Below are positions 2,883 through 44,730 of a stretch of 54,077 nucleotides of DNA, piece by piece (positions within the stretch are counted from its first letter, which is position 1; each line of letters opens with the position of its first letter). A model generated the notes under the pieces. The model made no database searches. It was not told where the DNA came from and saw only the letters and a list, made by a program, of their open reading frames with translations. The position numbers and the translations under genes are program-made. The stretch comes from Nemertoderma westbladi (taxonomy: Eukaryota; Animalia; Xenacoelomorpha), in assembly GCA_032718475.1 (NCBI GenBank), contig JAUCBJ010000051.1:1-54077 (forward strand). The letters are read 5' to 3'.

Positions 2883-3003
2883 TTTTAAATATATTCGTTC
2901 GCCCGTCCAGGTCTGGGAGGTTGAACTCAATCTTCCTGTCTAGACGACCGGGTCTCAACAGTGCAGGATCCAGTGTGTCTGGTCGGTTAGTCGCCATTAG
3001 CAC
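2846..3003 (-). CDS. PSMC2: 26S proteasome regulatory ATPase RPT1, coding exon 5 (gene continues beyond window start)
   Basis: [53 protein letters not shown] (AAA second region of homology); acceptor tttacccag, donor CG|gtgagt; 158 nt, phase 0 to 2. Confidence 0.96.
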
Positions 3004-5848: not shown

Positions 5849-7068
5849 TCACCAACACCTTCCTATAATGTGGATCTTAACAGATTGCCTAAATTTGGGA
5901 ACAAATAACAACATCAAATAAAAATTTAAGAAGTAAGCAGAACTGAGGAGTATGAGGTCGACAGTAAGGAAACGAATTCGGAAAAGTTCTATATCGTAAA
6001 AATATGTTAGTTGTTGCAGAGTAGTGAGCGGACCAAGTTCTTTTTATGATAATGAGTTGCATATTCCACAGTCATCAATACCAAATAACTTAATTCTCCC
6101 AGGACCAGCAATGTACTAACAATAAGGAATGTATACACGGCGCTGAATATGCGTTTATGTGATGATCTTGTGGCCGCCATTATCCGGATTTTGTAGACAG
6201 TGAGACAGTTTATTACAAGAGTAACGACGAATTGAATAACAGTTCGAACAATCTTGAAATACTCTAGGAAAGAAGTGGCACCATCTATCGCCGCATTACC
6301 TCCGGTATATTCATGTCCCCAAAATTCAACTGACTCGTTGACATATCTGACTTCTGGTATCCAAGCACAGTACTGTGGCCAATAAACAGCTGCTGTATAT
6401 ATAACCAAACATACCGTGATTGGGTATATCATTTTCTTATCCTTAAGTTTTGTTCGTTTATACCAAATTGGAAAATATAAAGCAGAAATTCTCTCCACCC
6501 CCATTAGTAACGATAATGAAATAATAATTTCCTTACATTGGCTAGAAAACAGTTTATAGTACATTTGGAATAACCAAAATATGAGATTGGGTGATTGAAA
6601 CGAGAATTCTATGTTTGTAAGCAAATGTGACTGAGATATCCACCAATCGTCGTTAAATCCGTAGAGTAAAAAGTTACCAAATAACTTACACGGTTCGAGA
6701 ATTGAGTCCAATATTAACATTCGATAAAATAACGTCGTCATTGTCGGATCCAAAATGATAGTTGCAATAATTAATGAACTACCAATAATACTAGCCACTA
6801 AATATATACAAGTCAATGGCAGCAAAACCTTTTTGCTTATAATTGTAAACTCAGTGCGTTTATTCGCAAAATTGTTGAACATTTTGTCGAATTCATCTTT
6901 TGTGATTGTCTCATAAAATTCGTGATACTCCTGGTTGGAGTCATTGAGATCTGGCTTAATGTCTTGGCTAGAGATCCGAGCTACTGGTGATGAGACGGAG
7001 TTGATGGAAATCAGCAATATAAATAGGATAAGTTGAGGTGAATATATTGAAAACATAATGGAATTCAT
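5849..7068 (-). pseudogene. Intronless rhodopsin-like 7TM GPCR nested in PSMC2 intron 3, 1-nt frameshift before TM7 (pseudogene or assembly indel)
   Basis: ORF 6007-7068 has a hydrophobic N-terminus, about six TM segments and a DRY-like GVERISALYFP. Adding one base in the T5 run at 6041-6045 continues into ...FLTVDLILLSSAYFLNFYLMLLFVPKFRQSVK...CW* (TM7/helix-8-like), stop at 5849-5851. Confidence 0.75.
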
Positions 7069-7165
7069 TCCAGTAAATTTAAGGTCTCGTTAAATTATAT
7101 TTTCATCACAATACGAAATGGTTATATTTAAGTTGTAATGGGTTAAAATTACAAGGACACGTTTG

Positions 7166-9270: not shown

Positions 9271-14965
<5,695 letters not shown>

Positions 14966-15671: not shown

Positions 15672-17574
15672 TTTGCCAATTAACTAAATATATTAACTAT
15701 ATTAATAGGCCTATTATTCAACTTATTGTGATTATGCCTGTCCTAAGATCAGTAACTAGTTCACAAAGCATTAAACATGACTTAAAGTACGGTATGCCTG
15801 ACCTACACCCACACACCTCACCCTGGAGTTGTTGAGCAGTAATGCCCACAGGCACACCTGTACTGCAATTGTATTTAAAAAAAAAAAGGTTAATTTATGT
15901 AATTATGATGATAGGGGATCGGTTTGCATTTCACTAAGGTGCAGTGCCGGAGGACCAAGAAACAAGTCCCTAAAAGGTGCCACCCTGCTCCAGCTCCATA
16001 GCCCGGGAAATTCAAATGAAATTAATAATTTGTAGGCCTATTGGTAATGGTGACAGATCAAATCTGCCACCTATCAGCAGATAGGTATGATAGGCAATAG
16101 GTAGGTAGGATGATAGGCTGATAGGCCTATCACTGATATACGGTAGGGTTAACCCGTTAGCTATACCAACCAATTCCGGACAAAATATTGAATTTCCCTC
16201 TCTTACTTCAGTTTGACCAATCATAAGACTGCAAATTAAGTTTTTTCTTTACATTACATTCTTCAGCTTCAAAATAAAACACTAACATCAATTGCCCAGT
16301 GCCACCTTGTGGGTGGGACTGGGCATTCTTTTTGTTGAGTCTGGCTTGTCCGGAATTGGTGTACCAAGCACAATTCCGGAAATAATGGTAGGCAATGCAG
16401 ACTCAAAAGTGGCTCCGATCAAAATAACCAATTATGTTGCACCAATTCCAGACAGAGAATGAAAGTGTTACCAATGTGCTATGTCTGTGAAATGAAGGTT
16501 TCAACCTATTTCTTTTTTGCAAACAATGTTATATTCATATTTTGTACAAACTATGACTGCAAACCTACAGCTGTACAGTCAAGCCGGCCACCTGCTGAGC
16601 TATTACTGTGTTGCCGTTCCTTGTTCTTTCTGTCTTTCAACCTATCCTCGTTTTTTTAGACTACTTCCATTCTGCACTTGGCACTTGGCTGCTTGGCAGT
16701 AGGGAACATACCCTTAAATAAGCTCCAAAAGTGGGTTCTTATTTAAGGAAAATGGCTCTTATTTAGGGGTTTTTGGGCCTTTTTTGGATATTTTTTCGAC
16801 ATAACATGCAAGAACTTGTTTCAGTAAAAAATACCGCATATTTTTATTTCACAATATAAAAGTTGGTTCTTTCTTGAACATAATGCAAAAAACCAGAAAA
16901 TATTTCACCGTCCGGTTTTTTTTCTACAAGCGTTTTAAAATTGCATCAAAAATACGACCAGTTCCTAAATAAGAGCGATTTTTTAAATTTACCTTATTTA
17001 AGACATCGAAATTGTACACATAAATACTAAAAGTCCTTAAATAAGAACTTTCTGACATGGGTTTCTTATTTAGGTATACAATTTCATTCCAAAATCTGCA
17101 TACTCCTTACAGCCTTAAATAAATTAAATATTTCTCATTTCTCACAGAGAGTAGAAGCAGTTCCGCGACAATAATAATATTGCCCCTCAAAAGAGGGCCC
17201 TTACTGCATCAGGGACGCGTTTTTCGGCAGAGCCCCGTCAGCTGAAACAGCCAGTGCCGCTAGTCGATGGGGTTGACTTGTTGACGAGAGGCTATTATGA
17301 CTTATGAGGCGCAATGGGATACGCATCGCGTATCTCCTTCTGTCAACCAATACTGGCCTCATTTCTCATATATTAAATTAAATAAATTAAATATCCTTAT
17401 ATAATGTCTCTTATAACCTTGTCTCCCAGCACCGTCCTCCTTCTGCCCTTATCTGCTTATGACAGTTATGATATGACCTCCTACCTGCCTAACCTTGACA
17501 GGACATTGCAAGATGCAGAGATAACTGGATAAGGGATCTTCTGAGCTTAATTGGATAGGTGCAAAAATGCACCA

Positions 17575-20500
17575 CGAGCAACAATGACCTACAATAAGCA
17601 ACAACGAGCAACAAACGAACAATGAGCTGATGAGTAACAAAACAACGAGCAACAACGAGTAACAATGAGTAACATTGAGCAATAATACTGTAATAAAGTA
17701 CAACAACGAGCAATAATGAGGAACAACGACTGAACGAGCAACAATGAGCAACAACGAGTAACAATGAGCAACAACGAGTAACAATGAGCAACAACGAGTA
17801 ACAATGAGCAACTACGACTACTACGAGTACCATTGAGCAACAATGAGAAACAATGAGCAACAACGAGCAAAAATGAGCAATAATAAAGTACAACAACGAG
17901 CAACAATGAGCAACAGCGAGAAACAACGAACAACAATCAGCACTAATGAGGAACAACGACTGAACGAGCAACAACGAGCAACAATGAGCAACAATGAGCA
18001 ATGACAAAGTACAACAACGAGCAACAACGAGAAACAGCGAGCAACAATGAGGAACAACGACTGAACGAGCAATAATAAAGTACAACAACGAGCAACAATG
18101 AGCAACAACGAGTAACACTGAGTAATAATGAGCAACAACGAGCAACAATGAGCAACAACGAGAAACAGCGAGCAACAATGAGGAACAACGACTGAACGTG
18201 CAATAATAAAGTACAACAACGAGCAACATTGAGAAACAACGAGCAACAATGAGCAATAATAAAGTACAACAACGAGAAACAACGAGCAACAATGAGCAAT
18301 AATAAAGTACAACAACGAGAAACAACGACCAATAATTAGGACATGAGGAACAACGAGTAACAATGAGCAACAATGACAATGAGTAAGAACGAGTAACATT
18401 GAGCAATAATAAAGTATAACAACGAGTAACATTGAGCAACAATGAGAAACACTGACCAACAATGAGCAATAATAAAGAACAACAACGAGCAACAATGAGC
18501 AACAACGACTGAACGAGCAACAACGAGTTATATTGAGCAACAACGAGCAATAATAAAGTACAACAACGAGAAACAACGAGCAACAATGAGGAACAACGAT
18601 TGAACAAACAATAATAAAGTACATCAACGAGCAACAATGAGTAACAATGAGCAACAACGAGCAATAATAGAGTACAACGAGCAATAATAAAGTACAACTA
18701 ACGAGCAACAATGAGCACCAACAAGCAACAATGACCAACAATAAGCAACAACGAGCAACAAATGAACAATGAGCTGATGAGTAACAAAACAACGAGTAAC
18801 AATGAGCAACAACGAGTAACATTGAGCAATAATAAAGTACAACAACGAGCAATAATGAGGAACAACGACTGAACGAGCAACAATGAGCAACAACGAGTAA
18901 CAATGAGCAACAATGAGAAACACTGAGCAACAATGAGCAATAATAAAGAACAACAACGAGCAACAATGAGCAACAACGAGCAATAATGAGCAACAACGAC
19001 TGAACGAGCAACAACGAGTTATATTGAGCAACAACGAGCAATAATAAAGTACAACAGCGAGAAACAACGAGCAACAATGAGGAACAACGATTGAACGAAC
19101 AATAATAAAGTACATCAACGAGCAACAATGAGTAACAATGAGCAACAACGAGCAATAATAGAGTACAACGAGCAATAATAAAGTACAACTAACGAGCAAC
19201 AATGAGCACCAACAAGCAACAATGACCAACAATAAGCAACAACGAGCAACAAATGAACAATGAGCTGATGAGTAACAAAACAACGAGTAACAACGAGCAA
19301 CAACGAGCAACAACGAGTAACATTGAGCAATAATAAAGTACAACAACGAGCAATAATGAGGAACAACGACTGAACGAGCAACAATGAGCAACAATGAGTA
19401 ACAATGAGCAACAACGAGTAACATTGAGCAACAATGAGAAACAATGAGCAACAACGAGCAATAATAAAGTACAACAACGAGCAACAATGAGCAACAGCGA
19501 GAAACAACGAACAACAATGAGCAATAATGAGGAACAACGACTGAACGAGCAACAACGAGCAACGATGAGCAACAACGAGTAACATTGAGAAACACCGAGC
19601 AACAATGAGCAATGATAAAGTACAACAACGAGCAACAATGAGCAACAACGAGTAACATTGAGCAACAATGAGCAACAACGAGCAAAAATGGGCAATAATA
19701 AAGTACAACAACGAGCAACAATGAGCAACAGCGAGAAACAACGAACAACAATGAGCAATAATGAGGAACAACGACTGAACGAGCAACAACCAGCAACAAT
19801 GAGCAACAACGAGTAACATTGAGAAACACCGAGCAACAATGAGCAATGATAAAGTACAACAACGAGCAACAATGAGCAACAACGAGTAACATTGAGCAAC
19901 AATGAGCAACAACGAGCAAAAATGGGCAATAATAAAGTACAACAACGAGCAACAATGAGCAACAACGAGAAACAGCGAGCAACAATGAGGAACAACGACT
20001 GAACGAGCAATAATAAAGTACAACAACGAGCAACAATGAGCAACAACGAGTAACGCTGAGTAATAATGAGCAACAACAAGCAACAACGAGCAACAATGAG
20101 CAACAGCGAGCAACAATGAGGAACAACGACTGAACGAGCAATAATAAAGTACAACAACGAGCAACATTGAGAAACAACGAGCAACAATGAGCAATAATAA
20201 AGTACAACAACGAGAAACAACGACCAATAATAAAGTACAACAACGAGCAACATTGAGAAACAACGTACAACGAGCAACAATGAGCAATAATAAAGTACAA
20301 CAACGAGAAACAACGACCAATAATTAGGACAGGAACAACGAGTAAGTCGAGTAACAATGAGCAACAATGACAATGAGTAACAACGAGTAACTTTGAGCAA
20401 TAATAAAGTATAACAACGAGTAACATTGAGCAACAACGAGCAACAATGAGCAATAATAAAGAACAACAACGAGCAACAACGAGAAACAACGAGCAATAAT

Positions 20501-20940
20501 GAGCAACAACGACTGAACGAGCAACAACGAGTTATATTGAGCAACAACGAGATATATTGAGTAACAATGAGCAATAATAAAGTACAACAACGAGCAACAA
20601 CGACTGACCGAGCAACAACGAGTAATATTGAGAAACAACGAGCAACAATGACAATGAGCAATAATAAAGTACAACAACGAGAAACAACGAGCAACAATGA
20701 GGAACAACGATTGAACGAGCAATAATAAAGTACAACAACGAGCAACAATGAGTAACAATGAGCAATAATGAGCAACAACGAGCAATAATAGAGTACAAGT
20801 ACAACGGGCAACAACGAGCAATAATAAAGTACAACTAACGAGCAACAATGAGCACCAACAAGCAACAACGAGCAACAATGACCAACAATGAGAAATAATA
20901 AAGCACAACGAGCAGCAATGAGCAACAACGAGCAACAAAC
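17575..20940 (+). repeat. Complex CAA-rich satellite (gagcaacaa(c/t) ~10-bp subunits with higher-order blocks) inside the TIR element
   Basis: Recurring gagcaacaat/gagcaacaac/gagcaataataaagtacaacaac; blocks recur at ~234-bp and ~491-bp offsets. Confidence 0.93.
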
Positions 20941-20990
20941 TGCGTCGAACCGGATTGAATGTGGGGGAGCGGAGCGGGAGAGACATATTC

Positions 20991-21281
20991 AAGTGAGCGA
21001 AGCCTTAGCATATGGGTGCTATTAACGAGTTGTCTGTCGTCGTTGTAAATTTTTTATCGTTAATAACTCGGTCATTCCATGATGAAATTAAACGAAACTT
21101 AGTATGTATGTAGTCTGTCAAAAGATTAGAAATAATCTGAAGTTTGGTAAAAAACAAACGAACGCAATGAGGCAAATTAAGGAGACGAGTATTGTGTTGA
21201 ACGACCTCTGACTAACGAAAGACAACATGTTAATGGGGTGGGGCCCCTATCAGATAGGGCTAGCTAAGGCTTTGCTCACTT
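20991..21281. mobile_element. Small element with 19-bp inverted repeats and a hairpin (HINE/MITE-like)
   Basis: aagtgagcgaagccttagc / gctaaggctttgctcactt (1 mismatch); hairpin ccctatc-a-gataggg just inside the right repeat. Confidence 0.55.
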
Positions 21282-22802
21282 CATGCTGCGCAAAGGTCCC
21301 ACGAACGTGTCCCACTCCCGCCTGAGTCAGTTGAGCCAAAAAACGTCATCCAGTCATCATCTTTAACCTTCATAACGTCTATCAGCTGCCCGACGGAACC
21401 ATCTTTGTGCCTATTGACATGACATTGACATTAGTTTTTCACTTTTTTCACACCTTTCAAGTTCAACATTGTGGACAATCCATATAAGTGGGGCGTAACG
21501 CGGAGCAGAAGAGGAAATGCAGGACACAAGTTAGTTTTTCGAAACTGTGCGGCGTGTCCAGTTACTTGAGTCATGTTTCATCGAAATACGTGACAATGTA
21601 TGTGCGCTCAGATGGGCGATGGGCTATTCTTTTGAATATCAATGGGCTATTCTATGCTACCGTGTGAGGTAAGAATGCCAGTGCTAGCAACTTCATTATG
21701 ATACGATATTCTATAGAGGATTTATAGAGTGCAGTGCAACCATTGTCCTTATCCTTAACCCAACAATTAGCAATATACAGACTGACATAAATCAAAGAAT
21801 TATGAAAGAAGTGTAACACATACTGTAAGGAATAAGGAATATTTATTTTATTTAAGGAATGTGCAGATTTTGGAATACAATTGTATTCCTAAATAAGAAA
21901 CCCCGGTCAAAAAGTTCTTATTTAGGGACTTTTAGTATTTATGTGTACAATTTCGATATCTTAAATAAGGTAAATTTAAAAAATCCCCCTTATTTAGGAA
22001 CTAGTCGTATTTTTGATGCAATTTTAAAACGCTTGTAGAAAAAAAACCGGACGGTGAAATGTTTTCTGGTTTTTTGCTTTATGTTCAAGAAAGACCCAAC
22101 TTTTACATTGTGAAATAAAATTATGCGGTATTTTTTCCTGAAACAAGTTATTGCATATTATATCGAAAAAATATCCAAAAAAGGCCCAAAAACCCCTAAA
22201 TAAGAGCCATTTTCCTTAAATAAGAACCCACTTTTGGAGCTTATTTAAGGGTATGTTCCCTACTGCTTGGTACGTGCCGTACGTCAGTACGTGTTCAGAA
22301 GACAGGAAGACTCCAAGAAGCTCGTAAAATAGTGTTACAGTCTCACAGTATTACTTTATTCCGTTATTATAAAAGTGGCCCCTGGTTTCCCATGCCAATA
22401 GCCTGACCATCGCGTTACTCAATGGCCTGACTGCCCGATGGCATGCCCTGATCTGAACTGTTGCGCATGCAGTATCAGCCTTCAATTTTCATGCAGCATC
22501 TGAGCATGCTGCATGCAGTGCACAAAATGCTGATGACAATTGTCAAAATATACCAGTCTACACTCTACAACTTCTGAACTTCTAATAATCTGATAATACC
22601 TGCCTTAGCTTTCAGGCTTTGGCTGCCTAACAACTCAAGCCATCACCTTGCACCAGTCTGCCAGTCTGTCTGTTCTGTCCTGGTTATGCTTAACCTTTTA
22701 ATGTTTTGCTTACCTACTGTCTACTGACCTATCAGCCTATATCAGTATATACTGTAGGGCAGTAGGCAGGTAGGGGTAGGCAGTAGGCCTATTAAATACA
22801 GT

Positions 22803-24658
22803 CAGTCGGTGAGAAGTCAAAAATTGGACTTGAGTCCAAAATTGGACTTCGACTCCAGTTCAAGTCCAAAATTGGACTTCTGTGAGTCCAATATTGGACT
22901 TCAAATCAGCCAATTGTTCCAGGGCCTTCGGTAATTGGATCGGGCGGGATTTTTTTCTTTTAATCGAAAATATATCAAAAAATAAGAGTTTTGAACAGGG
23001 GGACCTGAAATTCACCAGGGGGAACTTTTTTATAAGGCTTTGAATTTTTACAAAAGTCCAATATTGGACTTTACGTCCAATTTTGGACACGACATTGAGA
23101 ATCTAACTTAAATGTACATGAAGCATAACAGATGAGAGACAGCCAGACAGCTATTAAGTTATGGAAAGTTACCTTTGCAGCTCTCTGTATGTATCTTCAA
23201 TGTAACTGTACTTAGAATATAATGGTACATTCTAGCATTCTAGTTCTAGGTACTTTGTACTTTACTTTTAGCATATTGTTTAGTTTACATTCATGTTATG
23301 TCTAACCTTACAGCCTTATGTACCCAGGACTTTAGAGTCTTTAGGACTAGATTAGATTATGCTCCAAGAAATTTTTAATTACAAATTATATTTGGTGGAA
23401 ACTGGTAGCAATGCCAGGTTTTCCAACTGCAGCTGCTGCTAGGGCTTACTACAGTACACGCTACGATTTCGTCTACGCTTATGGGACCCCTATCAGAAAG
23501 AAATACTACAAGTTGATGCTACCACCATCTCTTCTAATTTTTCCATACATCAGGGAGGGTATTTGAAATCGAATGGATAATGAAACGGGATTAACTGATT
23601 AACGTGTTGGGGTCTCCACATAATAAGTAGCCTACAGAAGTAACACACGTCATAAACCAATGGAGGGAAAGGGACAGGTTACAGACAGACAGAGTTAGGC
23701 TTTTCTAACTAAAACAATAAACGGCCACTTTTGACTTTACCAATTGAGGGAGCCCTATCACCACATACTACTAACTACAATCCAGCAATCGGCATGCTGC
23801 ATTGCAGCTGCATTTTATATATATAGGCCCTATTAAGAATGCTGTGCCGGCTTATTGACAGAAGTGCGCCTCCACAACTCCCTTTACACTCTTACAGCCT
23901 TATCACCCATGACATTTGCTATCAGATCATCCGCATCTTCAAGGCCAGTGTCCTTTGAGACAGTAAGAAAGACTGAAAGATGCGTCTCAAGAAAGTCATG
24001 GGCTGTCCACCATGCTTATTTACTCCATGAGGTGCACTGGCTGGTCCTCATGACGAAAGCAATGTCCTGCAAATCGGAGGCGGCTTTGTTCTAGTGTCAA
24101 GCTTGGGGGAACTAATGAGACACCTCCAATGTTATATAGTGTCTGGTTGGAGATGTGTGCATTGTACTTGACACAGTGAACCCAATCAAAACAATTAGCC
24201 AATAAACATTAACTCAATAACATAATAGGTTACAGTTTACAGTAGTCTTATTTTTGCCATACGAAAATACCACAGGTATGGGTATGTATGAACTATACAG
24301 CTATAACTCAACTACCGCTACTGCGGTATACACCACTAAGGCAGTAAGGCTACCGCAAAGCCATACCACTACCGCAAAAAGTAACTACTGATGTCTGACT
24401 GTTACGTGTGCGATCTGCGATCCCTGCTTATAATACTTATAATAATTAATTTGATCATTAAAATGATGTTGCATTGTAATTATGTAATATATATGTACTG
24501 ATACGGGATGCAGTTTTGATTGAAATACCGATATACAGTATGGCAGCATGGGTACACTTAGAGTTGTACTAAAGTCCAATATTGGACTTTGGAGTCCAAA
24601 ATTGGACTTGAAGTCTAAAATTGGACTTGAAGTCCAATTTTTGACTTCTCACCGACTG
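22803..24658. mobile_element. Non-autonomous TIR element with CAGT termini, apparent 5-bp TSD ACAGT and palindromic subterminal repeats
   Basis: acagt|CAGTCGGTGAGAAGTCAAAAATTGGACTT ... AAGTCCAATTTTTGACTTCTCACCGACTG|acagt; repeated AGTCCAA(A/T)ATTGGACT at both ends. Confidence 0.85.
23930..24200 (-). mobile_element. Degraded 3' fragment of an RTE-type non-LTR retrotransposon (related fragment at ~40560-40720)
   Basis: Peptide SRLRFAGHCFRHEDQP; gcatcttcaaggccagtgtccttt...aagaaagtcatgggctgtcca shared with 40640-40697. Confidence 0.5.
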
Positions 24659-25485
24659 ACAGTACAGCAGTATGGAGTATATTAACATATAGCAAGGGCC
24701 TAGCTGCCTAGGCCTATCTGTATATTACAGTCAGACAGTATATATTCCGAATTATATTAAACTGTTAAAAGTATTACAGTATTACCGGTATACTAAAATA
24801 CTTCACAGTCTGACAGTACCGGCCACTGCGCTGTACCGGCCACTGCGCTGTACCGGTATAACACTGTCTGACTGTTATACGACCGGTACTGTTATAATAA
24901 CAGTACAGCAGTAGGCCTACAGGCAGTAGGGAACATATGCTTAAATAAGCAGTACGGGTCGCACTTCTTATTTACAGATCGCACTGCTTATTTAGGCAGT
25001 TTTACTCTAATTTTTGTGTTGTTTTGATGGTTTGACAGGTAGCAAATCAAAAGGGCCCCAATTTTTCTCCTCCAATGGGAACGTTTGTATACCCTGAGTC
25101 ATATTTTGAAATCAGCAATTAATTCTGTCGTGTAGAAGTCAATATAATAGGCTTCTACTATGAAGCAGTAGTTCCAATATCTCCTGGAATACTTTCTGAC
25201 GAGGCGCACTTCCTAAATAAGAGTTTTGGCTTGTTTAAATAAGCAGTGCGATCTTAACCAAGTTTGTAGTTACTTCTTAAATAAGCAGTGCGGGGTTGTT
25301 ATAACTTCCGGTTACTTCTTAAAGAAGCAGTTTTTTATCTACTCACTCGTTTTTTTATCTACTAACTCATACCTATGAACCTATCTGACTAAAATAGTTA
25401 AATTATGTGTATCAAATAAACCTGTCAGCCTGTACCGGTAATACTATTGTATATGTGAGTCGCCCATTGCTTGTAAATTGTAATA

Positions 25486-28068
25486 ATGGATGAAACACCC
25501 CCTGAAAGCGAAGCCTCGACAAAACCAAAATTTAAGAAGCAGTGTGGGTCGTGTTCTGGTACCACTGGACTTATTAATTTAAGTTCTTCGAAAACTCATG
25601 GAAGATTTCAGAAAACTGTGATCAAGTATATGATAACGAATAGAAAGATTTCAACACGTAACAAATTTGTTTGTGATAAATGTTATGAATTGTCAAGATC
25701 TCAAATTCATACTGAAATTGACTCAGACGTAGATGCGGCACTTTTCTCAATTCCAACACCAGCTGCTGAAAGTGGCACCGCCACTCATTCTGACCTTCAA
25801 ATCTTAAAGTCCTCAATTATGTCAACAGCCAAGTCGTTGAAAGGTAAGTATCGTGAATTTCTCACTTCAAGAGAGTGTTTAGAATTTGTTGACAAGAAAG
25901 TTATGGATTTCTGTTGCTCTTTGAGTAATTTAGAAAACCTTGATGAAGCTAATGATTTGCAATGCTTCTCGATATTAAAAACTATAGAGCAGCTTTGTTA
26001 CTTGTCAAATAAAACCTTTGTGGGTCCAATGTCATTTCAACAGAACTTTAACATGTATGTTATCTCGCATTGTAAAACTGCAATTCAGATAAATAGTTGT
26101 GGCACCCCAAATGGAAGTCTTACATTAATTAAGAACATAATAGAAGAAAAGGCTGTTAGTGTTCCTTACAGCAATGACAATTTGTGCGGTGATATACAAG
26201 TTGCTGTAGACAACAACCAAGTTTACTCGAAGACTTACCATATAATTTACAAAGGCGTCACTGTTTCAAAGACCACGAGTGTGATGAGCATACTACATAA
26301 AGCTATTGACTCACAACCTTTGCAATACAGTGCTCTGTCATTTCTTGAGATTCATGATAGTGAGATAGAAACTGTTATAAAACAATTTAGCGATCGGTTT
26401 AATGACACTTGTGAGAAAATTCGGCATTCATACTTAGAAACAATTTTAAAGTCTGTTTTAGATCAGTGCAATTCTAGCGTTGATTTAATTGAGGATTGCA
26501 TCCAGAAGCAAGATAGTGACTCAGCCAAGCCCACCTGGAGAGAAAAACGGTATGATCTGGTAGATGGAACTGCTATTACTATTGACAATGTTAATGTCAT
26601 AGAACAGATCCATGATCCTTATCCTGGTGACCCAGGATCACAAGCTGCTGTACAAGAAATACTGCATAAACTCGGAAATGATTTTTTAGTAGGTGACCGA
26701 AAATGGATCGTATTAGTAGTAGATGGTTCTCCATACCATATGGCTAAACCGATCATAAAAAACGACGACGTTTTAGCTAAACAGATTCTTTTGAAACCAG
26801 GTTTTGGCCATGTACATCATACCATGTTGAAAGCTTTAACCAAAATATTATGGGTACCCTTTGTCAAGACGTTTGCAACATCAGTTGCCATGTTTAAGAC
26901 ACCAAAAGCGCAAATGGCATTTTTCAATTGCACTGATCACCACAAAGCTGACCAATCATTCAATGTCATGTTAGAGGGGAATATGATGGAGATCGTGCGA
27001 TTAGCTGTGTATGAGCTAACTACAAAGGGATCCAATTCACTTCAATGTATTGAAACAAAAGACATTATTGACTGGGCTAATAATATAAGAAATCCTTCCC
27101 TCAAGTTTTTGTTTGAGTGGTCATACGGACCCATTCTGTCTGCTAAGCTTTTTAAAGAAGCTGTTCGACATAATAACTCACTAGCCTTAGATGGTTTTTT
27201 TTTCAAGTTTGCTCCTGTTTTTTTTGCCCATGTGAACCACATTTACAGGCAAATAGCTGCGCACTATTTTGCACAGAAAATGATGATGACTGAAAGTGTA
27301 AAGTTATTTTACGAAAACGACAGCTACACCAAGGACCTTTTGTGGAGAGGAGAAGCGCTGGATTACCTATTAGAAGAGAAACATAAAAAAATAAAATGGA
27401 TAACCGATTCTGGTTTACCTACATGGAAGCGATGGGTCACTGGTTACAGAACACTAAATTTCAGTTGGGATGTGAGAAATACTTTGTACAACAATACAGC
27501 AGTGAATGACCCTGCTTTATTGAGTCGCCATGATGCCAAGGAAATTAGTCTTGAGCCACTAATATTGCACTACAGAACATTACTTCGACAGTCACACTTC
27601 GCTATTGACGATTCACAGCATGTTCCCAGTAATATTAATCCATTGGGGTTGAAAGGAGAACTCAGCAGTCTCAGTTCTGACTTTCTGAAGATTGGCTTTG
27701 CCACTTTTAATGAATGTTTGAAAGCTGAACTCCACAATTGTCCTTTCCCGAAAATAACTCCAGTTCCTATTACCTTGGCTCAGGAATCGCTTATGAAACT
27801 TCCAGAATATCAAACAATATCAAAGTTACATGATACAATATCATGGTTTATCAAGAAACTTTCAAGCCAGTCAATTTCAAAAACATTTCAGTTGCAATTA
27901 TCTAGTAGCCGAACTAAATCGCAATATGTAAACTTATACCACAAAATATTCGAAATTCCGGAATTTCAAGAGCTTATAGATGAATATGTAGAAAGCAGTT
28001 CTGGCAACCCCTCGGGCTCGGCCTCTCACTCTGACTCTACTTCCAGTAGTGATGACGAACATTTATAA
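25486..28068 (+). CDS. Putative DDE transposase, 860 aa (Academ/DUF6589-like motif pattern)
   Basis: Inside TIRs; N-terminal CxxC...CxxC; ordered motifs VAVDNNQ, LVVDGSPY, PGFGHVH, ALDYLLEEKHKKIK resembling DN / D / GxxH / DxxxE of Academ-type transposases. Family call by eye. Confidence 0.75.
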   Translation: MDETPPESEASTKPKFKKQCGSCSGTTGLINLSSSKTHGRFQKTVIKYMITNRKISTRNKFVCDKCYELSRSQIHTEIDSDVDAALFSIPTPAAESGTATHSDLQILKSSIMSTAKSLKGKYREFLTSRECLEFVDKKVMDFCCSLSNLENLDEANDLQCFSILKTIEQLCYLSNKTFVGPMSFQQNFNMYVISHCKTAIQINSCGTPNGSLTLIKNIIEEKAVSVPYSNDNLCGDIQVAVDNNQVYSKTYHIIYKGVTVSKTTSVMSILHKAIDSQPLQYSALSFLEIHDSEIETVIKQFSDRFNDTCEKIRHSYLETILKSVLDQCNSSVDLIEDCIQKQDSDSAKPTWREKRYDLVDGTAITIDNVNVIEQIHDPYPGDPGSQAAVQEILHKLGNDFLVGDRKWIVLVVDGSPYHMAKPIIKNDDVLAKQILLKPGFGHVHHTMLKALTKILWVPFVKTFATSVAMFKTPKAQMAFFNCTDHHKADQSFNVMLEGNMMEIVRLAVYELTTKGSNSLQCIETKDIIDWANNIRNPSLKFLFEWSYGPILSAKLFKEAVRHNNSLALDGFFFKFAPVFFAHVNHIYRQIAAHYFAQKMMMTESVKLFYENDSYTKDLLWRGEALDYLLEEKHKKIKWITDSGLPTWKRWVTGYRTLNFSWDVRNTLYNNTAVNDPALLSRHDAKEISLEPLILHYRTLLRQSHFAIDDSQHVPSNINPLGLKGELSSLSSDFLKIGFATFNECLKAELHNCPFPKITPVPITLAQESLMKLPEYQTISKLHDTISWFIKKLSSQSISKTFQLQLSSSRTKSQYVNLYHKIFEIPEFQELIDEYVESSSGNPSGSASHSDSTSSSDDEHL

Positions 28069-28529
28069 TTACTAATTAGGTATATATATACCGGTTTTTT
28101 TAATAATTTGAGAATTTAATAATTTTCATCAGTATATTAATATTATAAAAATTCATGCTAAATATATAATATATATATATATACAGTATATAGTAAGATT
28201 CAGTTTAAATCAATTTAAAAAAATCAATTACTGTAGGTAAATCAATTTAAAAAAAATTAAAATACAAATAACATTGCCAAATTATTCATAAAAAGTATTG
28301 CCAAATTGCACATTATAGGGAAGTTCTCAAAAGAATCAAAATAACATTCAACTCAAATTAAACATATTATATAATTAGCTATAAAAGAGTACAAAATATC
28401 ACAATCAATTAGGTTAATCAATTAATAAAAATTGCCATTTAAAATTACAGCAGTATAATATATAAAAATATATAGATAAAATAAAATATATAGATAAAAT
28501 ATATATATAAAAATATATATATATATAAG

Positions 28530-29678
28530 TTACTTTTTTTTCGACCGTGTACGGTATCTTGGTGGTGCTGCTGCTGATTGGCTCGTTGAGGCATCACCAT
28601 CCTGTGTCGTTTCCGTCATGGCAACAACACTCTGCTCCCCAACAAAGTCAACCCTATGTGCCTGGCAATACCATGGGCACATGGTCCTTCCCTCAGCAAT
28701 GGTCAATGTTGGAAACCCAACACAGAAGCTGTGTACCCATTGTTGGCAATTCAGGGCCTGGCACCCTAGCACTGTGCCTGAAATGTCTCCAATAGCATTA
28801 AAGATTCGATAACAAATCGAGCACCTCGCCGCAGGATTGCAAAGACCCACACGTCGCCGCAAAAATATATCCACAGATGGCAACTGAGGAGTTTTTGATG
28901 GTGTCACAACGTTTGGTGCTTGTAGATCCTGGTCACCTGCCAACTCAATTGGTTCGCCCGATTCAACTCTGTCCACCACAAGGCCAGCTCCAATCTGGAC
29001 TGCCTTGATGAATGCCTCAACTGCCTCACCTTTGGTTGAAAACAGCTTATTCTGGATAGGATTGATATCTATCCCACCTAAAATTGATCGCGAATTAGCA
29101 GGTGAAGGCTCCTCCTTGTTGGTGCTGCAGGATGAACGTATATTAAGTCTATATTTCTCCCCCCCCCTATCATGTCGCATGTTCAAAAAAATTACATCGG
29201 ACCCGGTGTGAGTCAAAGTTTCTAGTTCCTTAAGTTTCTCGTGTATTCCATCTCTACGCTTTGAATCCATAGATGTTCTATAATTATCGTTCTTTTCAAA
29301 CGCTGCTTCCGACTTCCTCCTCCTCTTCTTAATAGGGTCTGCCGATGATCGTCCGCTATCAGACACAACTCCACTGACACCAGATACTGGTGAGTAGTGC
29401 GAATCAGACTGTGGTGCACCTGTGCTGTGTGTACTAGTTAATATCGCTAGTTCGTTGTCCTCGTAATCGTTAGGATCTATAGTTAGAAGTGTTAGCGGTA
29501 CCTCGTAGTTGGAACTACCCGGATCATATAGGCCTACTGTTCCACTAACGCTCGAGAGGATGTTCGATATTGACTCCTGAATTTCCGCCTCAAGAATTCC
29601 ATCGCTTTGTTGAGGTTGTTGTTCTTCCTCTTCCGGTATTTGAAGATCCCGTTCTTCTTGGTCAGTCTCTTTATCCAT
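28530..29678 (-). CDS. Transposon accessory protein with C-terminal PHD-type zinc finger, 382 aa
   Basis: CSIC-x16-CQALNC-QQWVHSFC...WYCQAH (C4HC2H-like PHD); acidic N-terminus; basic KKRRRK NLS-like motif. Confidence 0.75.
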   Translation of the reverse strand: MDKETDQEERDLQIPEEEEQQPQQSDGILEAEIQESISNILSSVSGTVGLYDPGSSNYEVPLTLLTIDPNDYEDNELAILTSTHSTGAPQSDSHYSPVSGVSGVVSDSGRSSADPIKKRRRKSEAAFEKNDNYRTSMDSKRRDGIHEKLKELETLTHTGSDVIFLNMRHDRGGEKYRLNIRSSCSTNKEEPSPANSRSILGGIDINPIQNKLFSTKGEAVEAFIKAVQIGAGLVVDRVESGEPIELAGDQDLQAPNVVTPSKTPQLPSVDIFLRRRVGLCNPAARCSICYRIFNAIGDISGTVLGCQALNCQQWVHSFCVGFPTLTIAEGRTMCPWYCQAHRVDFVGEQSVVAMTETTQDGDASTSQSAAAPPRYRTRSKKK

Positions 29679-31084
29679 TAAAAATAAAATCAGAAAAGTA
29701 TTATTTTACTTTACTGTATTAGGCTAGGTGCTAGGTTTAAGAAACGCAGTCTTAATTATCATATTAGGCCTACTGGAATTAAGTCGTCAGACTGATAATG
29801 AATCATGACCCTTTAACAACTTATTGGGGCACTGCTTATTTAAGAGATAGGTCTACCATTAACTAGAGGTTACAACAACCCCACACTGCTTATTTAAGAA
29901 GTAGCTATAAACTTGGTTAAGATCGCACTGTTTATTTAAACAAGCCAAAACTCTTATTTAGGAAGTGCGCCTCCTCAGAAAGTATTCCAGGAGATATTGG
30001 AACTACTGCTTCATAGTAGAAGCCTATTATATTGACTTCTACACGACAGAATTAATTGCTGATTTCAAAATATGACTCAGGGTATACAAACGTTCCCATT
30101 GGAGGAGAAAAATTGGGGCCCTTTTGATTTGCTACCTGTCAAACCATCAAAACAACACAAAAATTAGAGTAAAACTGCCTAAATAAGCAGTGCGATCTGT
30201 AAATAAGAAGTGCGACCCGTACTGCTTATTTAAGCATATGTTCCCTACTGACAGGCTACAGCTGTACAGGAGTAGACAAACAGGCATACACCAGTACACA
30301 CACTAGGCTGCTAGGCAGATTCTACCAGGTTTTTCCGGAATTGGTGCAGGCTGTCCGGTAAATTGGTAAATTCCGGAATAGGTATAGACGGTACCTACCT
30401 ACCTCTGTACCTACCTGCCTACTGGCTACTGCTACTGCTGTACTGGCTGAATGGCAACGACAGGACAGCAGGAATGATACTGCAGTATTCTGGTATTGGC
30501 AGTCTGGTACCGGCAGACCGGTACACACCGATACACTAAAATTCTATCAGAATACCGGCTCCGGCTGACCGGCAGACAGGTACTGAGGTAGGTACGGATT
30601 ACGGACTACATACAGACGGATACAGCCAATCCTGTCTGCCTGTACAGCTGTAGTACTGTAGTACAGCAGTATGCTCATGCTGTTACAGCTGTAGGCTGGT
30701 AGGCCTATAGTGTTTTATCAGCAAATTGGGCTTTATATTTTAAATTTCCCTCTAACAATATGTTACACAGCAAAATGTGCTCAATATCTCAGACACTCGC
30801 ACTTTCAATTCGATATCGTACAAAATTACAGCGCACTTTTTACAATTCTGAACACAAGGCTGCAAGGCCAGAAGACGTTGTTACTGTATTTCTAACTAAA
30901 TTCTAATTTCTAACTAATTCAAACTAACTAATATTTAGGTAGTCTGGTACCATAGTATTTGCTGTACTGCAGTTGTGTTGAACCGGCCAACAGGAATATT
31001 TGAAAATGGAAACATGGGCACAATGAGGAACGTGCTGTGTTTAACGTCTCCTTCTAAGTTTACCCGGTTCTACTGTAATTACAC

Positions 31085-32430
31085 CCTCTGTATGAAAAGA
31101 ATAGTAAAGTAGAACCCTGTAATTACAGACCTGTTAGTATGTTAAGTATTGTATCAAAAATTCTAGAACGTTCTGTTTTTCTACAGCTGGAGGCACATCT
31201 TAGTAGGCTAAATCTGATCTATGAACTTCAGTCCGGTTTTCGTAAATCATATTCTACAGACACCTGCCTTATTAACTTAACTGATACAATTAGATGTAAT
31301 AACGCAAAGGGTTTATATACTGGTATGGTAATGTTGGACCTACAAAAGGCTTTCGATACTGTAGATCACGAAATTATGCTTGGTAAGTTAGGCCTGATGG
31401 GTGTAGGTTCTATAGACTGGTTCAAGTCCTACCTTTCAGACAGAGGTCAAACTGTAGTCATTAGCAAATCGCAGTCTACTGTACAAGAGATTACCTGTGG
31501 TGTACCGCAAGGTAGTATATTAGGTCCTCTGCTATTTGTATGCATGTAAATGATATGATAAGTAGTATAGATCCCGATTTTAAACTCATTTTATATGCCG
31601 ACGACAGTGCTCTTATTTTCTCTCATAAAGATCCTATCCATATTTCCCAAAAGTTAAGTGCAGTTCTAGAATCCTGTAATGAGTGGTTGGTTGATAATAA
31701 GCTATCCATTCGCTACGGTAAGACTGAAAGTATTTTGTTTGGTTCCAAAAGAAAGTTAAAGAAGGTAACTAAGTATGAAGTCACTAGTAATGGACATAAG
31801 ATTGAAAATAAAAAGGAAGTTAAATATTTAGGCGCCACATTGGATAACTGCTTATCAGGAGAAAGCACAGTGAAAAATATTTTCTCGAAAGTTAACAGTA
31901 GGCTTTGGTTTCTATACAGAAATAAAAATAGTTTAAACACCGACTCCCGCAAGTTACTTTGCTCTTCTTTAATACAGTGTCACATGGACTATGCGTGCTC
32001 TTCTTGGTATGAAGGCTTAACCAAACAGCTTAAATGTAAATTACAAGTAGCTCAGAATAAAGTAGTACGATTTATTAAAGACTACAAACCTAGGCACCAC
32101 CTAACTCCAGATGACTTTTCTGAATCTGGACTACTTAACTTAGATAGTAGAGTTAAGCAGCTACGCCTTAACCATGTGCATAAAGTGTATAATGGTAAAT
32201 GTCCCAATTACCTAAAACAAAAATTCAACAGAGTACGCGATACACACTCTTACAATACCAGAGCTAGTGCTTCAAACTTCTACCTCCCGAATTGTAAATC
32301 CTTCGAATCTGATACTTTCTTTTTTAACGGCATTAAAAATTGGAACGCTCTGCCTAATGAAATTAAAAACCTAGATAATCAACATTCTTTTACATCTGCA
32401 GTTAAATCTCACCTCCGTGTGCAATGTAAA
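31085..32430 (+). mobile_element. 5'-truncated, frameshifted non-LTR retrotransposon RT (CR1/L2-group-like)
   Basis: [46 protein letters not shown], then frameshift near 31545, VND...LYADD, KYLG, HSYNTR, WNALP. Confidence 0.92.
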
Positions 32431-35400
32431 AATAGACATGGCAAGAATGGCTACATGGGGATGGGCACATTGAGGAACGAACGATTACACCCCTTACTTC
32501 GCCATCTGTTATTGTTTTTGTACCCAATTTAACCATAAAAGATTTATGTTAACATATGATTGGAATTTTATTGTGGCACGCCATTAAGAATAAGAATTGT
32601 TTTTACCCAATAACCATAAAAGATATATTGTATACTAACATATAATTTGAATTTTATTGAGGCGCCATGCAAATACTGTAGGAACAAAGTAATGGTTGTT
32701 CGCTGGTAACTCATACTGAGTGAGATGTGACAGATGTGCAAAATAGTCATGAGTCTATGTCTAGGTGAATAAAAGATATAATGTCGGGTAGTGCAGTGAA
32801 AATATCAGAAGTGAGTGTTTATCTCTACCTGTACAGTACTGTATATCATTATAGTAGAGTGTGCTGGTACGTATAAATTTCATAAAGTCTGTAAACATTC
32901 ATTGACATATTTTAATTAATCAATATTGAGGTACGTTTGTAAGTATAATAAAGTATCGTGCTTGTTGCTAGGGTGATGGTGGGGGGGGGGGGGGGGGGGG
33001 GGGAGGGTGAGCGAGAAAAAAATAAGGAGAAAAATAAGCTCCCTGTGTCGTGAATAAATACAAGTAGGCCTACTGTAACATCTTCGGTAGTTTTGGTCTG
33101 GAATGAAATATTGTCATAATCTCTAGGCAAGTACGATTGAACTTGAAACAGACTTTACTTCGATTCTGTCACTACTGTACAGTCATTCCTATCAACAAAA
33201 CTCGTACCTACAGTATACGTTGCAATAGCCAAATTTGACTGCAACTGTAGGCCTACATCTTTCTGATAATTTTTACTACCACTTCCAACACTACCATACT
33301 GTAGGTTTGCCAGCCCATTCTTTACGTTGTAGGCCTACTCCGACACATGACCTTTGCTTACGATATTCGACGGAGAGACGCATAGTCGGATTGTCACGAT
33401 AATAATTGTATTGACTATCAATTTCAGATAGAAAAAAGACGGAATTGTCATGATTACGGACTTCTTCTGTATATCATCAGTTATAAGTTTTTTGCCGTGA
33501 CTAATAATTATTGACTGCTAATATAATAAAATCTATATTAATTATTATCTTATCTTATAAAACATCCACAGCTTTAAACACAAATTCCTGGAATTATGAC
33601 TTCAGCACTACGATTAACTATCATTTACTTAATTTGTTTTGGGATGTTCATGTTGACATTTGCAGACGATTTGCAGCAAAGGTAGAGTAATACAGTAGAG
33701 AGAATAATACATACAAACAATAATACATAGTATAAACAGGTAGGGGGGGGGGGGGGAGGTAAACTGGACGCAATAAAAATTCATCCTTCTCCAGGGGAAA
33801 TTCGACGAAAATAACTGACTGATTATTCTCAAAAATAAAACTGTATCCTGTTCTATTGTGCTTAGTTAATTGTTTTGGATAAAATAACGTGCCACTGTAA
33901 CGTGCTCCTTTCCCTAAATTGAGAATTTAACATTGAGGTGGGATATTAATTCGCCAAGATGGGATTTGCGTCCAGATCCCCCCCCCCTGTCTCAGTATAA
34001 CGGTGCTAGGCATACAGTATGCCTATATACAGTATACTGTAGTATGACAACTACAAGGAATGATCGGATTACTGTCAAGGCCTTGATTACAGTGCAACTC
34101 AGGTAGGTCCTGGCGCCACCGAGCCACACCAAATCAGCCTGTCAACCGTAGTCTATTTGTTGCGATATATGGCGTTGTGTGTAAAACAACCCATCATACA
34201 GTATAGAACAGATTAGATAAGCGTATTAATGTATGACCGTAATATAATTAGATAGGGTAAATAAAATCAACAGGTTCATTTATATTCATTTAATTTTTAT
34301 ACAGTATGTAGTCTCAATTACGTAAATTTTATAATAAAACCCTAGTATATTAATTTGCGGTGACAAACTTCTATAAAACTAAAATTTGAATTTGCCGTTT
34401 TCTAATATCTACCGAATCTATAACATATTTGTGCTAATTTCGTTTACATTCTATATAAATCAATATTTGTGTTAAATTAACGTTTGAATTGTGCTTTTAA
34501 TAATTTCCGAATTAATTTAAGGCGATTATGCGCTTCTGCTCGCTGGTTGGTCAAGAGCCCAGCTGACAGAACCCTGGATCTGGCCTGATCATGTGAGATA
34601 TTGCGTCATTCTTACAGTTTAACAGTAGCCATATTTATTATTTTATTTGCACTTCCGTTTTGATTGTAAATTTGCTGATTTCTGCTATAATTTGTGACTT
34701 TGAATAATGATTACTGCTTGACCTGACTCTTGATTTGATTTCTGATTGTTTAATTATAATTCGCAATGTAGTAAACCTAAATCAACGTTTGTTTCTTCAA
34801 ACTGTCTGACCTGTTTTGCTATGTTTTACGCCGTTACGGTAACCGCCCGCTTTAGCATGTTGGGCTAAGGGTAGGCGTCGCGGGCTCACTATTCCGAAGC
34901 GACAGAAGGAGAGTTGGAGGATCCAATGCACAGCAGTACCGGCGGGGCTGGTAGCTTATTAGTAGCGTAGTTATTTTCTGTTTCGGCTTGTTCTTAGGAC
35001 AATTAGCTTGGTATGTTATAGTTTTATTAACCCTTTTGTTTCATTCGAAAATACAAACATATCAAAAGGAAGAATCCCCTTTGAGATTTCTTTAACACTA
35101 TTCTTTCGCAGACATTCTGGGAGAGTTATTGACTCGCCCCCATTTATGCCACGTCCAAACTGCGTTTACAATTTTCCAAAAGGGCCTACTTGCAAGTGGT
35201 TTCATGCCATGTGGTGGTTATACTGTACACACATCAACCCCCATCGTGTTTAGTAATTTCAGTATTTTTAGTAAGTTCAGGCTAGTAATTATTTTTATTA
35301 GCTACTGTAGGCCTACATTAGTACTGGTAGCTAGTAATTATTCACTATCCAGGCTATTACTTTTTCATATAAAATATCTTTGATGTCAGAAATATATATT

Positions 35401-42689: not shown

Positions 42690-44730
42690 ACATCCACTTC
42701 TTTGATCCGTCCAACATCCACTTATTGTATCCGTCCAACATCCACTTCTTGGATCCGTCCAACATCCACTTCTTGGATCCGTCCAACATCCACTTCTTGG
42801 ATCCGTCCAACATCCACTTCTTGGATCCGTGCAACATCCACTTCTTGGATCCGTCCAACATCCACTTCTTGGATCCGTCCAACATCCACTTCTTGGATCC
42901 ATCCAACATCCACTTCTTTGATCCGTCCAACATCCACTTATTGTATCCGTCCAACATCCACTTCTTGGATCCGTCCAACATCCACTTCTTGGATCCGTCC
43001 AACATCCACTTCTTTGATCCGTCCAACATCCACTTCTTGGATCCGTCCAACATCCACTTCTTGGATCCGTCCAACATCCACTTCTTGGATCCGTCCAACA
43101 TCCACTTCTTGGATCCGTCCAACATCCACTTCTTGGATCCGTCCAACATCCACTTCTTGGATCCGTCCAACATCCACTTCTTGGATCCGTCCAACATCCA
43201 CTTCTTTGATCCGTCCAACATCCACTTCTTGGATCCGTCCAACATCCACTTCTTGGATCCGTCCAACATCCACTTCTTGGATCCGTCCAACATCCACTTC
43301 TTGGATCCGTCCAACATCCACTTCTTGGATCCGTCCAACATCCACTTCTTGGATCCGTCCAACATCCACTTCTTGGATCCGTCCAACATCCACTTCTTGG
43401 ATCCGTCCAACATCCACTTCTTGGATCCGTCCAACATCCACTTCTTGGATCCGTCCAACATCCACTTCTTGGATCCGTCCAACATCCACTTCTTGGATCC
43501 GCCCAACATCCACTCCTTTGATCCGTCCAACATCCACTTCTTGGATCCGTCCAACATCCACTTCTTGGATCCGTCCAACATCCACTTCTTGGATCCGTCC
43601 AACATCCACTTCTTGGATCCGTCCAACATCCACTTCTTGGATCCGTCCAACATCCACTTCTTGGATCCGTCCAACATCCACTTCTTTGATCCGTCCAACA
43701 TCCACTTATTGTATCCGTCCAACATCCACTTCTTGGATCCGTCCAACATCCACTTATTGTATCCGTCCAACATCCACTTCTTTGATCCGTCCAACATCCA
43801 CTTATTGTATCCGTCCAACATCCACTTCTTGGATCCGTCCAACATCCACTTCTTGGATCCGTCCAACATCCACTTCTTTGATCCGTCCAACATCCACTTC
43901 TTGGATCCGTCCAACATCCACTTCTTGGATCCGTCCAACATCCACTTCTTGGATTCGTCCAACATCCACTTCTTGGATCCGTCCAACATCCACTTCTTTG
44001 ATCCGTCCAACATCCACTTCTTGGATCCGTCCAACATCCACTTCTTGGATCCGTCCAACATCCACTTCTTGGATCCGTCCAACATCCACTTCTTGGATCC
44101 GTCCAACATCCACTTCTTGGATCCGTCCAACATCCACTTCTTTGATCCGTCCAACATCCACTTCTTGGATCCGTCCAACATCCACTTATTGGATCCGTCC
44201 AACATCCACTTCTTTGATCCGTCCAACATCCACTTCTTGGATCCGTCCAACATCCACTTCTTGGATCCGTCCAACATCCACTTCTTGGATCCGTCCAACA
44301 TCCACTTCTTGGATCCGTCCAACATCCACTTCTTTGATCCGTCCAACATCCACTTATTGTATCCGTCCAACATCCACTTCTTGGATCCGTCCAACATCCA
44401 CTTCTTGGATCCGTCCAACATCCACTTCTTTGATCCGTCCAACATCCACTTCTTGGATCCGTCCAACATCCACTTCTTGGATCCGTCCAACATCCACTTC
44501 TTGGATCCGTCCAACATCCACTTCTTGGATCCGTCCAACATCCACTTCTTGGATCCGTCCAACATCCACTTCTTGGATCCGTCCAACATCCACTTCTTGG
44601 ATCCGTCCAACATCCACTTCTTTGATCCGTCCAACATCCACTTCTTGGATCCGTCCAACATCCACTTCTTGGATCCGTCCAACATCCACTTCTTGGATCC
44701 GTCCAACATCCACTTCTTGGATCCGTCCAA
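42690..44730 (+). repeat. 24-bp tandem array (~85 copies), unit CCAACATCCACTTCTTGGATCCGT
   Basis: Highly homogeneous units; recurring variants ttctttgatcc and ttattgtatcc. Confidence 0.98.

Follow-up and report, generated by a model that had tools for sequence, protein, structure and literature searches.

An intact two-gene transposon of Nemertoderma westbladi with Academ-type catalytic motifs and a convergent PHD-finger partner

The window analysed here, a 54,077-nt stretch of contig JAUCBJ010000051.1 (assembly GCA_032718475.1), carries what is with good confidence an intact cut-and-paste transposon, likely still or recently mobile, with Academ-type catalytic motifs and likely a branch of its own, marked by CAGTAG termini, a 5-bp target site duplication, a convergent PHD-finger partner and no nuclease or helicase. 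Set against the descriptions of AcademX and AcademH, the element is probably a divergent, third Academ lineage.

Architecture and mobility of the element

The element spans 24924–30250 and is bounded by terminal inverted repeats (TIRs) identical at 382 of 391 positions, with all nine mismatches past position 276. Its termini are CAGTAGGG...CCCTACTG. The features of the element and of a sister element in the same window are as follows.

16697–22265, no strand: non-autonomous sister of the main element (5569 bp), sharing its termini and flanked by a separate 5-bp duplication
24919–24923, no strand: left target site duplication, ACAGG, single copy at the empty site
24924–25314, plus strand: left TIR, 391 nt, beginning CAGTAGGGAACATA, with six TAAATAAG subterminal motifs
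25486–28068, plus strand: ORF1, 860-aa Academ-type DDE transposase with a predicted RNase H fold and conserved motifs
28069–28529, no strand: AT-rich spacer separating the two stop codons; contains (TA)n runs and, on the plus strand, two AATAAA (28424, 28480)
28530–29678, minus strand: ORF2, 382-aa partner with an acidic N-terminus, a basic segment and a PHD-type finger
28656–28823, minus strand: PHD-type finger of ORF2, aa 286–341, Trp314 retained
29184–29345, minus strand: basic segment of ORF2, aa 112–165, weak MADS/SRF-like match
29860–30250, minus strand: right TIR, 391 nt
30251–30255, no strand: right target site duplication, ACAGG

ACAGG is the sole direct repeat flanking the element when lengths of 2–12 are tested. 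A 6-bp duplication, ACAGGC, was rejected, as it spoils the symmetry of the TIRs and does not fit the sister element, and a TAG terminus 3 nt further in was rejected on the empty site, which lacks CAG/CTG. In runs X2 and X3, both from one other sample, empty-site contigs read from the left flank straight into position 30251 through a single ACAGG; their loose sides, which like all loose ends from the read runs represent a mixed consensus only, measure 17 and 10 letters, below the 31-letter bridging rule, and match window positions 24902–24918 exactly. Companion contigs end at 24924, as predicted by the empty allele. Five joints that skip large internal segments occur across runs X1–X4, and TIR contigs are far deeper than interior contigs (164.6 versus approximately 25 in X1), depth not being equivalent to copy number. 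Recent mobility of the element is supported by the empty site and the deletion derivatives. The sequence-only reading had described an intact, possibly recently active two-gene DNA transposon with near-perfect long TIRs, an exact 5-bp duplication and two uninterrupted tail-to-tail ORFs (860 aa, plus strand; 382 aa, minus strand), and each part of that description holds.

The sister element shares 25 of its first 27 nt with the main element, has TIRs of its own (413 nt, 391/413 identical) and is flanked by a second 5-bp duplication, CTTGG, at 16692–16696 and 22266–22270. The chance of two such 5-bp flank matches is approximately 1.4e-6. Extending its TIR by one base was rejected, since no duplication would be left. 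Its interior comprises a tandem array (17576–20938) and is non-coding, with no transposase match. The sister element contains 14 TAAATAAG motifs, and 26 of the 30 copies in the window fall inside the two elements; these motifs are likely candidate binding sites for the transposase. The ORF1 enzyme would bind them in the long TIRs, excise the element and insert it through an attack staggered by 5 nt, and the non-coding family represented at 16697–22265 would be moved by this enzyme or a close sister.

The transposase and its relation to Academ

The ORF1 product, P0001, is predicted to be a DDE/RNase H transposase with catalytic residues D, D and E. Its AlphaFold model (pLDDT 86.3, pTM 0.83) shows a predicted RNase H fold interrupted by a large helical insertion; in the model, a strand carries D242 (26209–26211), a strand end D413 (26722–26724) and a helix E630 (27373–27375). 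An RNase H fold was what the sequence-only reading had expected of the 860-aa ORF; the fold is predicted, and the three residues are conserved. Among rows with a letter in the 105-row family alignment, conservation amounts to 76/79 for D242, 100/100 for D413, 101/102 for H442, 88/90 for D626 and 86/88 for E630, the further motifs being G439xxH442 and D626xxxE630. The N-terminus carries a zinc finger (C20/C23/C63/C66). At two positions P0001 differs from the family, with E444 in place of H and N446 in place of T, and its activity is not assured because of these differences. It lies on a long branch (1.8) in the family tree; the family trees were built without Academ reference sequences and do not give clade placement.

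By VIA-align, the model is closest to the P-element transposase (Z 11.2, rmsd 6.3, 359 aligned residues), followed by Hermes (Z 9.0) and HIV integrase (Z 8.3, rmsd 3.1, 122 aligned). The P-element (PDB 6p5a) and Hermes hAT (PDB 4d1q) transposases resemble the model in having an RNase H core, a large helical insert in that core and an xxxH motif past the second aspartate. However, identity to them is 8–9%, the rmsd is 6–8 Å, and neither ORF has a THAP or BED match in Pfam. P-element and hAT families make 8-bp duplications.

Sequence searches returned 365 clusters of ORF1 relatives (E ≤ 0.001), one of them in Mercenaria. DUF6589, which we take to denote Academ, matched 20 of 38 relatives at E ≤ 0.05, five of them above the cut-off. 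P0001 alone matched no transposase family in Pfam (one irrelevant weak match). No solved relative of the Academ transposase was detected by sequence in the PDB, where P0001 gave no match and the family profile 13 weak ones of zinc-ribbon type at E ≤ 10. Foldseek with the ORF1 model and a BFVD fold search gave nothing at E ≤ 0.001; ESM Atlas rows, all below 0.9, serve as leads only, one having DUF6589 in 12% of its members. Of 61 pattern matches in a viral_contigs scan, none was confirmed.

The portion of the published Academ profile considered here contains D3-N4, g220xxH223 and D450xxxE454 (PMC5751038 File S1). A by-eye, unscored comparison with the family alignment, covering the first motif, GxxH and DxxxE, shows D-N, GxxH and DxxxE in the same order and at similar spacing. 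The first motif reads D-N-x-Q in 68 of the 82 rows with letters, as against D-N-x-D in that profile. The sequence-only reading had held that the element fits no superfamily that can be named; this was not supported as put, and the element is best classified as a divergent lineage of Academ because its catalytic motifs match those of the published profile.

The AcademX nuclease is of the XPG type, and in AcademHP a PHD finger lies within the transposase. The little-studied Academ superfamily, with AcademX and AcademH, was reportedly described by Kapitonov and Jurka in 2010 and Kojima in 2020. In its passages on target site duplications, Kojima (2023) names only two lengths for Academ, 3–4 bp in AcademX, with an encoded nuclease, and 9–10 bp in AcademH, with a helicase, a difference thought to arise through the accessory enzymes. 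The present element resembles Academ in its D-N first motif, the GxxH after the second aspartate, the DxxxE last motif, the DUF6589 matches of its relatives and its length (approximately 5.5 kb; bivalve Academ mean 5565 bp). It differs from Academ as characterized in the relevant part of PMC10045372 in its termini (CAGTAG rather than TAG) and duplication (5 bp rather than 3–4 or 9–10 bp), and also in its D-N-x-Q motif, the absence of a nuclease or helicase, and the PHD finger in a separate convergent gene. With respect to AcademX, the duplication is 5 bp at two elements and at the empty site, and no nuclease family was found; with respect to AcademH, the duplication is again 5 bp, and there is no helicase. 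In place of the TAG terminus of described Academ lineages, CAGTAG is found in the main element, the sister element and a distant related locus, L003. That neither XPG nor helicase is visible, as first noted from the sequence, was corroborated by Pfam, which finds no such family in ORF1, ORF2 or 38 relatives; helicase motif I is absent from 151 proteins, in which one chance DEAD tetrapeptide occurs.

It is unlikely, though conceivable, that Repbase or Dfam already lists this lineage, for instance as the class 'Academ-2', and that the main element is only a new member. Two publications, a preprint on bivalves and a paper on a fungal genome, use that label in their annotation tables without defining it, and curators may already know so widespread a family (365 clusters). 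However, Kojima (2023), as far as its treatment of Academ duplications extends, gives just the two lengths above, and of the 100 Academ consensuses in a curated library for bivalves, the first 14 begin with TAG (13) or TAC (1), whereas the library's five entries starting with CAGTAG are labelled hAT or TcMar. The literature searched contained no element combining an Academ-type transposase, CAGTAG termini, a 5-bp duplication and a PHD partner. More doubtful still is that the element stands outside Academ, in a sister superfamily of its own. Termini, duplication length, partner and first motif all differ from Academ, and the low number of relatives above the DUF6589 cut-off points the same way; against this, the three motif blocks compared with the profile agree in order and approximate spacing, and the two duplication lengths that Kojima (2023) links to different accessory enzymes already coexist within Academ.

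In ProtoRAG the two genes are convergent. Transib and RAG-like elements are described, in the part of PMC8355894 drawn on here, as having a 5-bp duplication and CAC heptamer termini, with a PHD finger in RAG2. The present element shares the duplication length with both, and with ProtoRAG the convergent pair of genes of which the second has a PHD finger; in addition, the RAG1 N-terminal zinc-finger family is found in 10 of 38 relatives, and RAG1 and HzTransib are present in the fold list. A Transib/RAG-like assignment is nonetheless highly improbable and largely refuted: the termini are CAG rather than CAC, the TIRs are long (391 nt), RAG1 (Z 5.7) and Transib (Z 6.6) score below the P element and Hermes, no RAG1 or Transib chain is among the 13 PDB matches of the family profile (E ≤ 10), and no RAG1-core or RAG2 Pfam match occurs in ORF1, ORF2 or 38 relatives, in keeping with the initial observation that RAG1 motifs are missing. 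ORF2 gave no match to a RAG2-type six-bladed propeller in Pfam or the PDB, and its own model has a pLDDT of 32.6.

The PHD-finger partner and related loci

The finger of ORF2 has Cys4-His-Cys3-type spacing, with ligands C286, C289, C306, C311, H316, C319 and C334/C338/H341 and with W314 ahead of the histidine. Its Pfam PHD score (22 bits, E 1.7e-4) is below the cut-off of 24, although ligand spacing and W314 bear out the earlier assignment of a convergent PHD-finger protein. The basic segment resembles a MADS domain weakly (Pfam SRF-TF, 18.7 bits, cut-off 26, E 0.0011), and the top PDB matches of ORF2, MCM1 and SRF, are likewise weak (E 0.07–0.3). ORF2 is mostly low-complexity, two protein searches returned no relatives, the ESM Atlas gave no usable match, and the fold model is too poor for fold comparison.

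L003 encodes a transposase approximately 20–27% identical to ORF1, from a different subclade, with CAGTAGGG 763 nt upstream of the transposase ATG, followed by subterminal repeats; its sequence lacks the right end and the duplication. The convergent PHD ORF of L003 has a finger that matches that of ORF2 (score 88, reached by 0/5000 shuffles), whereas the N-terminal segments of the two partners are not significantly alike (936/5000 shuffles reach the score), and the L003 partner searched alone has no MADS match. A PHD partner is found at one of nine related loci, seven of which have less than 700 nt downstream. At the frameshifted locus L006, with 2323 nt downstream, none was found. A CAGTAGG at position 449 of L005 was not counted as a terminus, as it lies more than 5 kb from the transposase fragment.

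ORF2 may tentatively be read, at close to an even chance, as an accessory subunit whose PHD finger would read methylated histone H3K4 while the MADS-like helix contacts DNA; it would in this way guide or license transposition within open chromatin. Somewhat short of an even chance, it could instead be captured cargo or an anti-silencing factor outside the transposition reaction, as the missing partner at L006 and the low-complexity, relative-free sequence of ORF2 would suggest; yet the fact that L003, with so divergent a transposase, has a homologous PHD partner that is likewise convergent argues for long retention. The broader reading, which combines the accessory-subunit role with an undescribed, widespread animal lineage of RAG-independent, two-subunit design (a DDE transposase that leaves 5-bp duplications, joined by a convergent PHD, MADS-like partner that targets it to H3K4-methylated chromatin), is doubtful.

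Implications

A third Academ form with neither helicase nor nuclease and with a 5-bp duplication would offer a direct test of the accessory-enzyme account of duplication length, and may reveal the cut spacing of the bare transposase. The intact, polymorphic copy makes a transposition assay possible and, if the two-subunit reading is true, would be a reagent for learning how an accessory subunit alters Academ target choice and duplication length. A third form would also help annotators to classify many unclassified CAGTAG elements. The two-gene layout is reminiscent of the transposon ancestor of the antibody-gene recombinase, and should the PHD protein prove to be a genuine subunit, it would be an independent parallel to RAG1/RAG2 and bear on the origin of RAG2-like helpers.

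Termini, layout and genomic setting

The main element is bounded by terminal inverted repeats (TIRs) of 391 nt with 9 mismatches, none of them within the outer 276 nt, and it starts with CAGTAGGG and ends with CCCTACTG. ACAGG stands on either side as the sole flanking direct repeat at the lengths checked (2–12 nt), and the two reading frames converge with 461 nt between their ends. The long near-perfect TIRs, 5-bp target-site duplication and two uninterrupted frames of the sequence-only reading are thus borne out. The 12-mer TAAATAAGCAGT occurs 14 times at ≤1 mismatch (0.54 expected), with 12 occurrences inside or adjoining the TIRs.

Features of the window
24924–30250, main element, 5327 bp
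25486–28068, + strand, ORF1, transposase P0001, 860 aa, uninterrupted
28530–29678, − strand, ORF2, partner, 382 aa, uninterrupted
16697–22265, second element, 25/27 terminal letters common with the main element, own 413-nt TIRs
22799–24662, third TIR element, CAGTC termini, TA flanks
31139–32532, non-LTR retrotransposon reverse transcriptase fragment in two frames (Pfam RVT_1)
1–2882, 9271–14676 and 42690–44730, very homogeneous tandem arrays (units of 42, 36 and 24 bp; 96–97% matches), several open frames in each
45983–50731, − strand, single coiled-coil-like frame of 1582 codons, no Pfam match at E ≤ 0.001
6007–7089, − strand, seven-transmembrane receptor encoded in one exon (Pfam 7TM_GPCR_Srx, E 3e-6), in an animal host

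The second element is flanked by the duplication CTTGG and carries 14 copies of the motif TAAATAAG, which it has in common with the main element. No transposase match was found within it, and its interior (17576–20938) is a degenerate GAGCAACAAT tandem array. The third element, with palindromic subterminal repeats (AAGTCCAA..TTGGACTT) and very deep in the sequencing runs, looks like a non-autonomous Tc1/mariner-type element; 13.6 kb of the window houses all three.

Empty site and mobility

Parts of the main element are present in five of six sequencing runs, from three studies. In runs X2 and X3, contigs on the right end carry 17 and 10 loose letters ahead of 30251, which equal window 24902–24918 and 24909–24918. 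Left flank here meets right flank with one ACAGG, an empty site, seen in the one sample behind both runs and with loose sides shorter than the 31-letter bridging rule. Companion contigs end at 24924, the point where filled and empty alleles diverge; run X1, which has the filled allele, may come from the same source as the window. The 5-bp duplication is verified twice beyond the main element's flanks, by the empty site and by the second element.

Five joints in the runs skip large internal segments (25495>28786, 25529>26890, 25810>29518, 26133>29019 and 27210>29090), and deep, short contigs differ at 2–3 positions across the last 27–33 nt; deletion derivatives and related non-autonomous families therefore exist. 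Together with the empty allele, these derivatives support the recent activity proposed earlier, and the element is mobile in the population.

The transposase and its relation to Academ

Pfam assigned no transposase family to ORF1. A word-index search returned one relative. With a full HMMER search at E ≤ 0.001, the family grew to 365 clusters, of which 128 reach 1e-10 (identity 22–35%); one of ten looked up was named, an uncharacterised Mercenaria protein. In an alignment of P0001 with the 104 longer sequences of 150 relatives listed, D242, D413, H442, H486, R561, D626 and E630 are nearly invariant, the conserved triad among them, and four N-terminal cysteines are conserved. The AlphaFold model (pLDDT 86.3, pTM 0.83) gave no Foldseek match at E ≤ 0.001 (top, P-element transposase, E 0.008). 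VIA-align Z-scores were 11.2 for the P element, 9.0 for Hermes, 8.3 for HIV integrase, 8.2 for Tn5 and 7.5 for ISCth4, with 6.6 for HzTransib and 5.7 for RAG1. This model and these comparisons lead to a predicted RNase H/DDE core interrupted by a large helical insertion; the earlier reading had proposed a check for this fold.

Among 38 long relatives scanned, DUF6589 matched 20 at E ≤ 0.05 (5 above cut-off) and no helicase or XPG family was found. The RAG1 N-terminal zinc-finger family (PF12560), a domain common to the P0001 clade and RAG1, matched ten, nine above cut-off (P0018, P0032, P0045, P0046, P0053, P0068, P0069, P0084, P0121 and P0143).

The comparison with an Academ profile from the literature (PMC5751038, File S1) was made by eye, at motif level and without a score, on 5 of its 94 parts (1, 9, 10, 18 and 19). 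The profile has D3-N4-x-D6, g220-x-x-H223-x-e and D450-x-x-x-E454 with K462; P0001 has D242-N243-x-Q245, G439-x-x-H442 and D626-x-x-x-E630 with K637/K638. The first motif is D-N-x-D in those profile parts, whereas the family has D-N-x-Q (68 of 82 alignment rows with letters). A C/DxxH signature is given in PMC9587614. In Kojima 2023 (PMC10045372), duplications are 9–10 bp in AcademH and 3–4 bp in AcademX, linked to helicase and nuclease, in contrast to 5 bp here. A curated bivalve library (PMC10294476) has 100 Academ entries, the first 14 of which begin with TAG or TAC; the five library entries located that start with CAGTAG carry hAT or TcMar labels.

The earlier statement that the element fits no superfamily does not hold in that form: Academ-type motifs are present. 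The marks of both described branches are absent. We consider it probable that this is a real, intact Academ-type transposon failing the defining marks of both. That the lineage is already catalogued is unlikely. The literature searched yielded no element with this combination, but a class label, Academ-2, occurs undefined in the available parts of two papers.

The partner gene and its possible role

ORF2 contains a PHD-type finger (aa 286–341, Pfam E 1.7e-4, under cut-off), in which Trp314 aligns with a Trp of the ING2 finger, and a weak SRF/MADS match (aa 130–158, Pfam E 0.0011) whose top PDB matches are MCM1 and SRF (E 0.07–0.3). Two protein searches found no ORF2 relatives. A metagenome contig scan with a 12-sequence subclade query reduced 275 pattern hits to nine loci. 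One, L003, encodes a related transposase, interrupted by an inverted duplication and in a subclade apart from P0001, whose own tree position is unsure; CAGTAGGG lies at 123, and eight GTATACTA repeats come after it (8-mer expected 0.009). The PHD finger of its convergent frame clearly resembles that of ORF2 (0/5000 shuffles reach the score); the basic N-terminal segments, taken alone, are not significantly similar (936/5000). Downstream sequence is under 700 nt in seven loci. L006 has 2323 nt, in which no PHD partner was found; a short, frameshifted Cys/His-rich frame (2631–3076, − strand), convergent on the family transposase, could represent another kind of partner.

By DDE chemistry, the transposase would bind TAAATAAG motifs in the ends, excise the element and insert it with a 5-nt stagger, after which the gaps would be repaired. 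ORF2 could equally be a helper that reads H3K4 methylation, steering or licensing transposition, or else, on the rival account, cargo or an anti-silencing factor. Transib and RAGL elements (PMC8355894) share the 5-bp duplication length, with CAC ends and a RAG2 composed of a propeller and a PHD finger. A RAG-independent two-subunit design, in which a PHD/MADS-like partner would target the transposase to H3K4-methylated chromatin, is a tentative and rather doubtful reading of this lineage.
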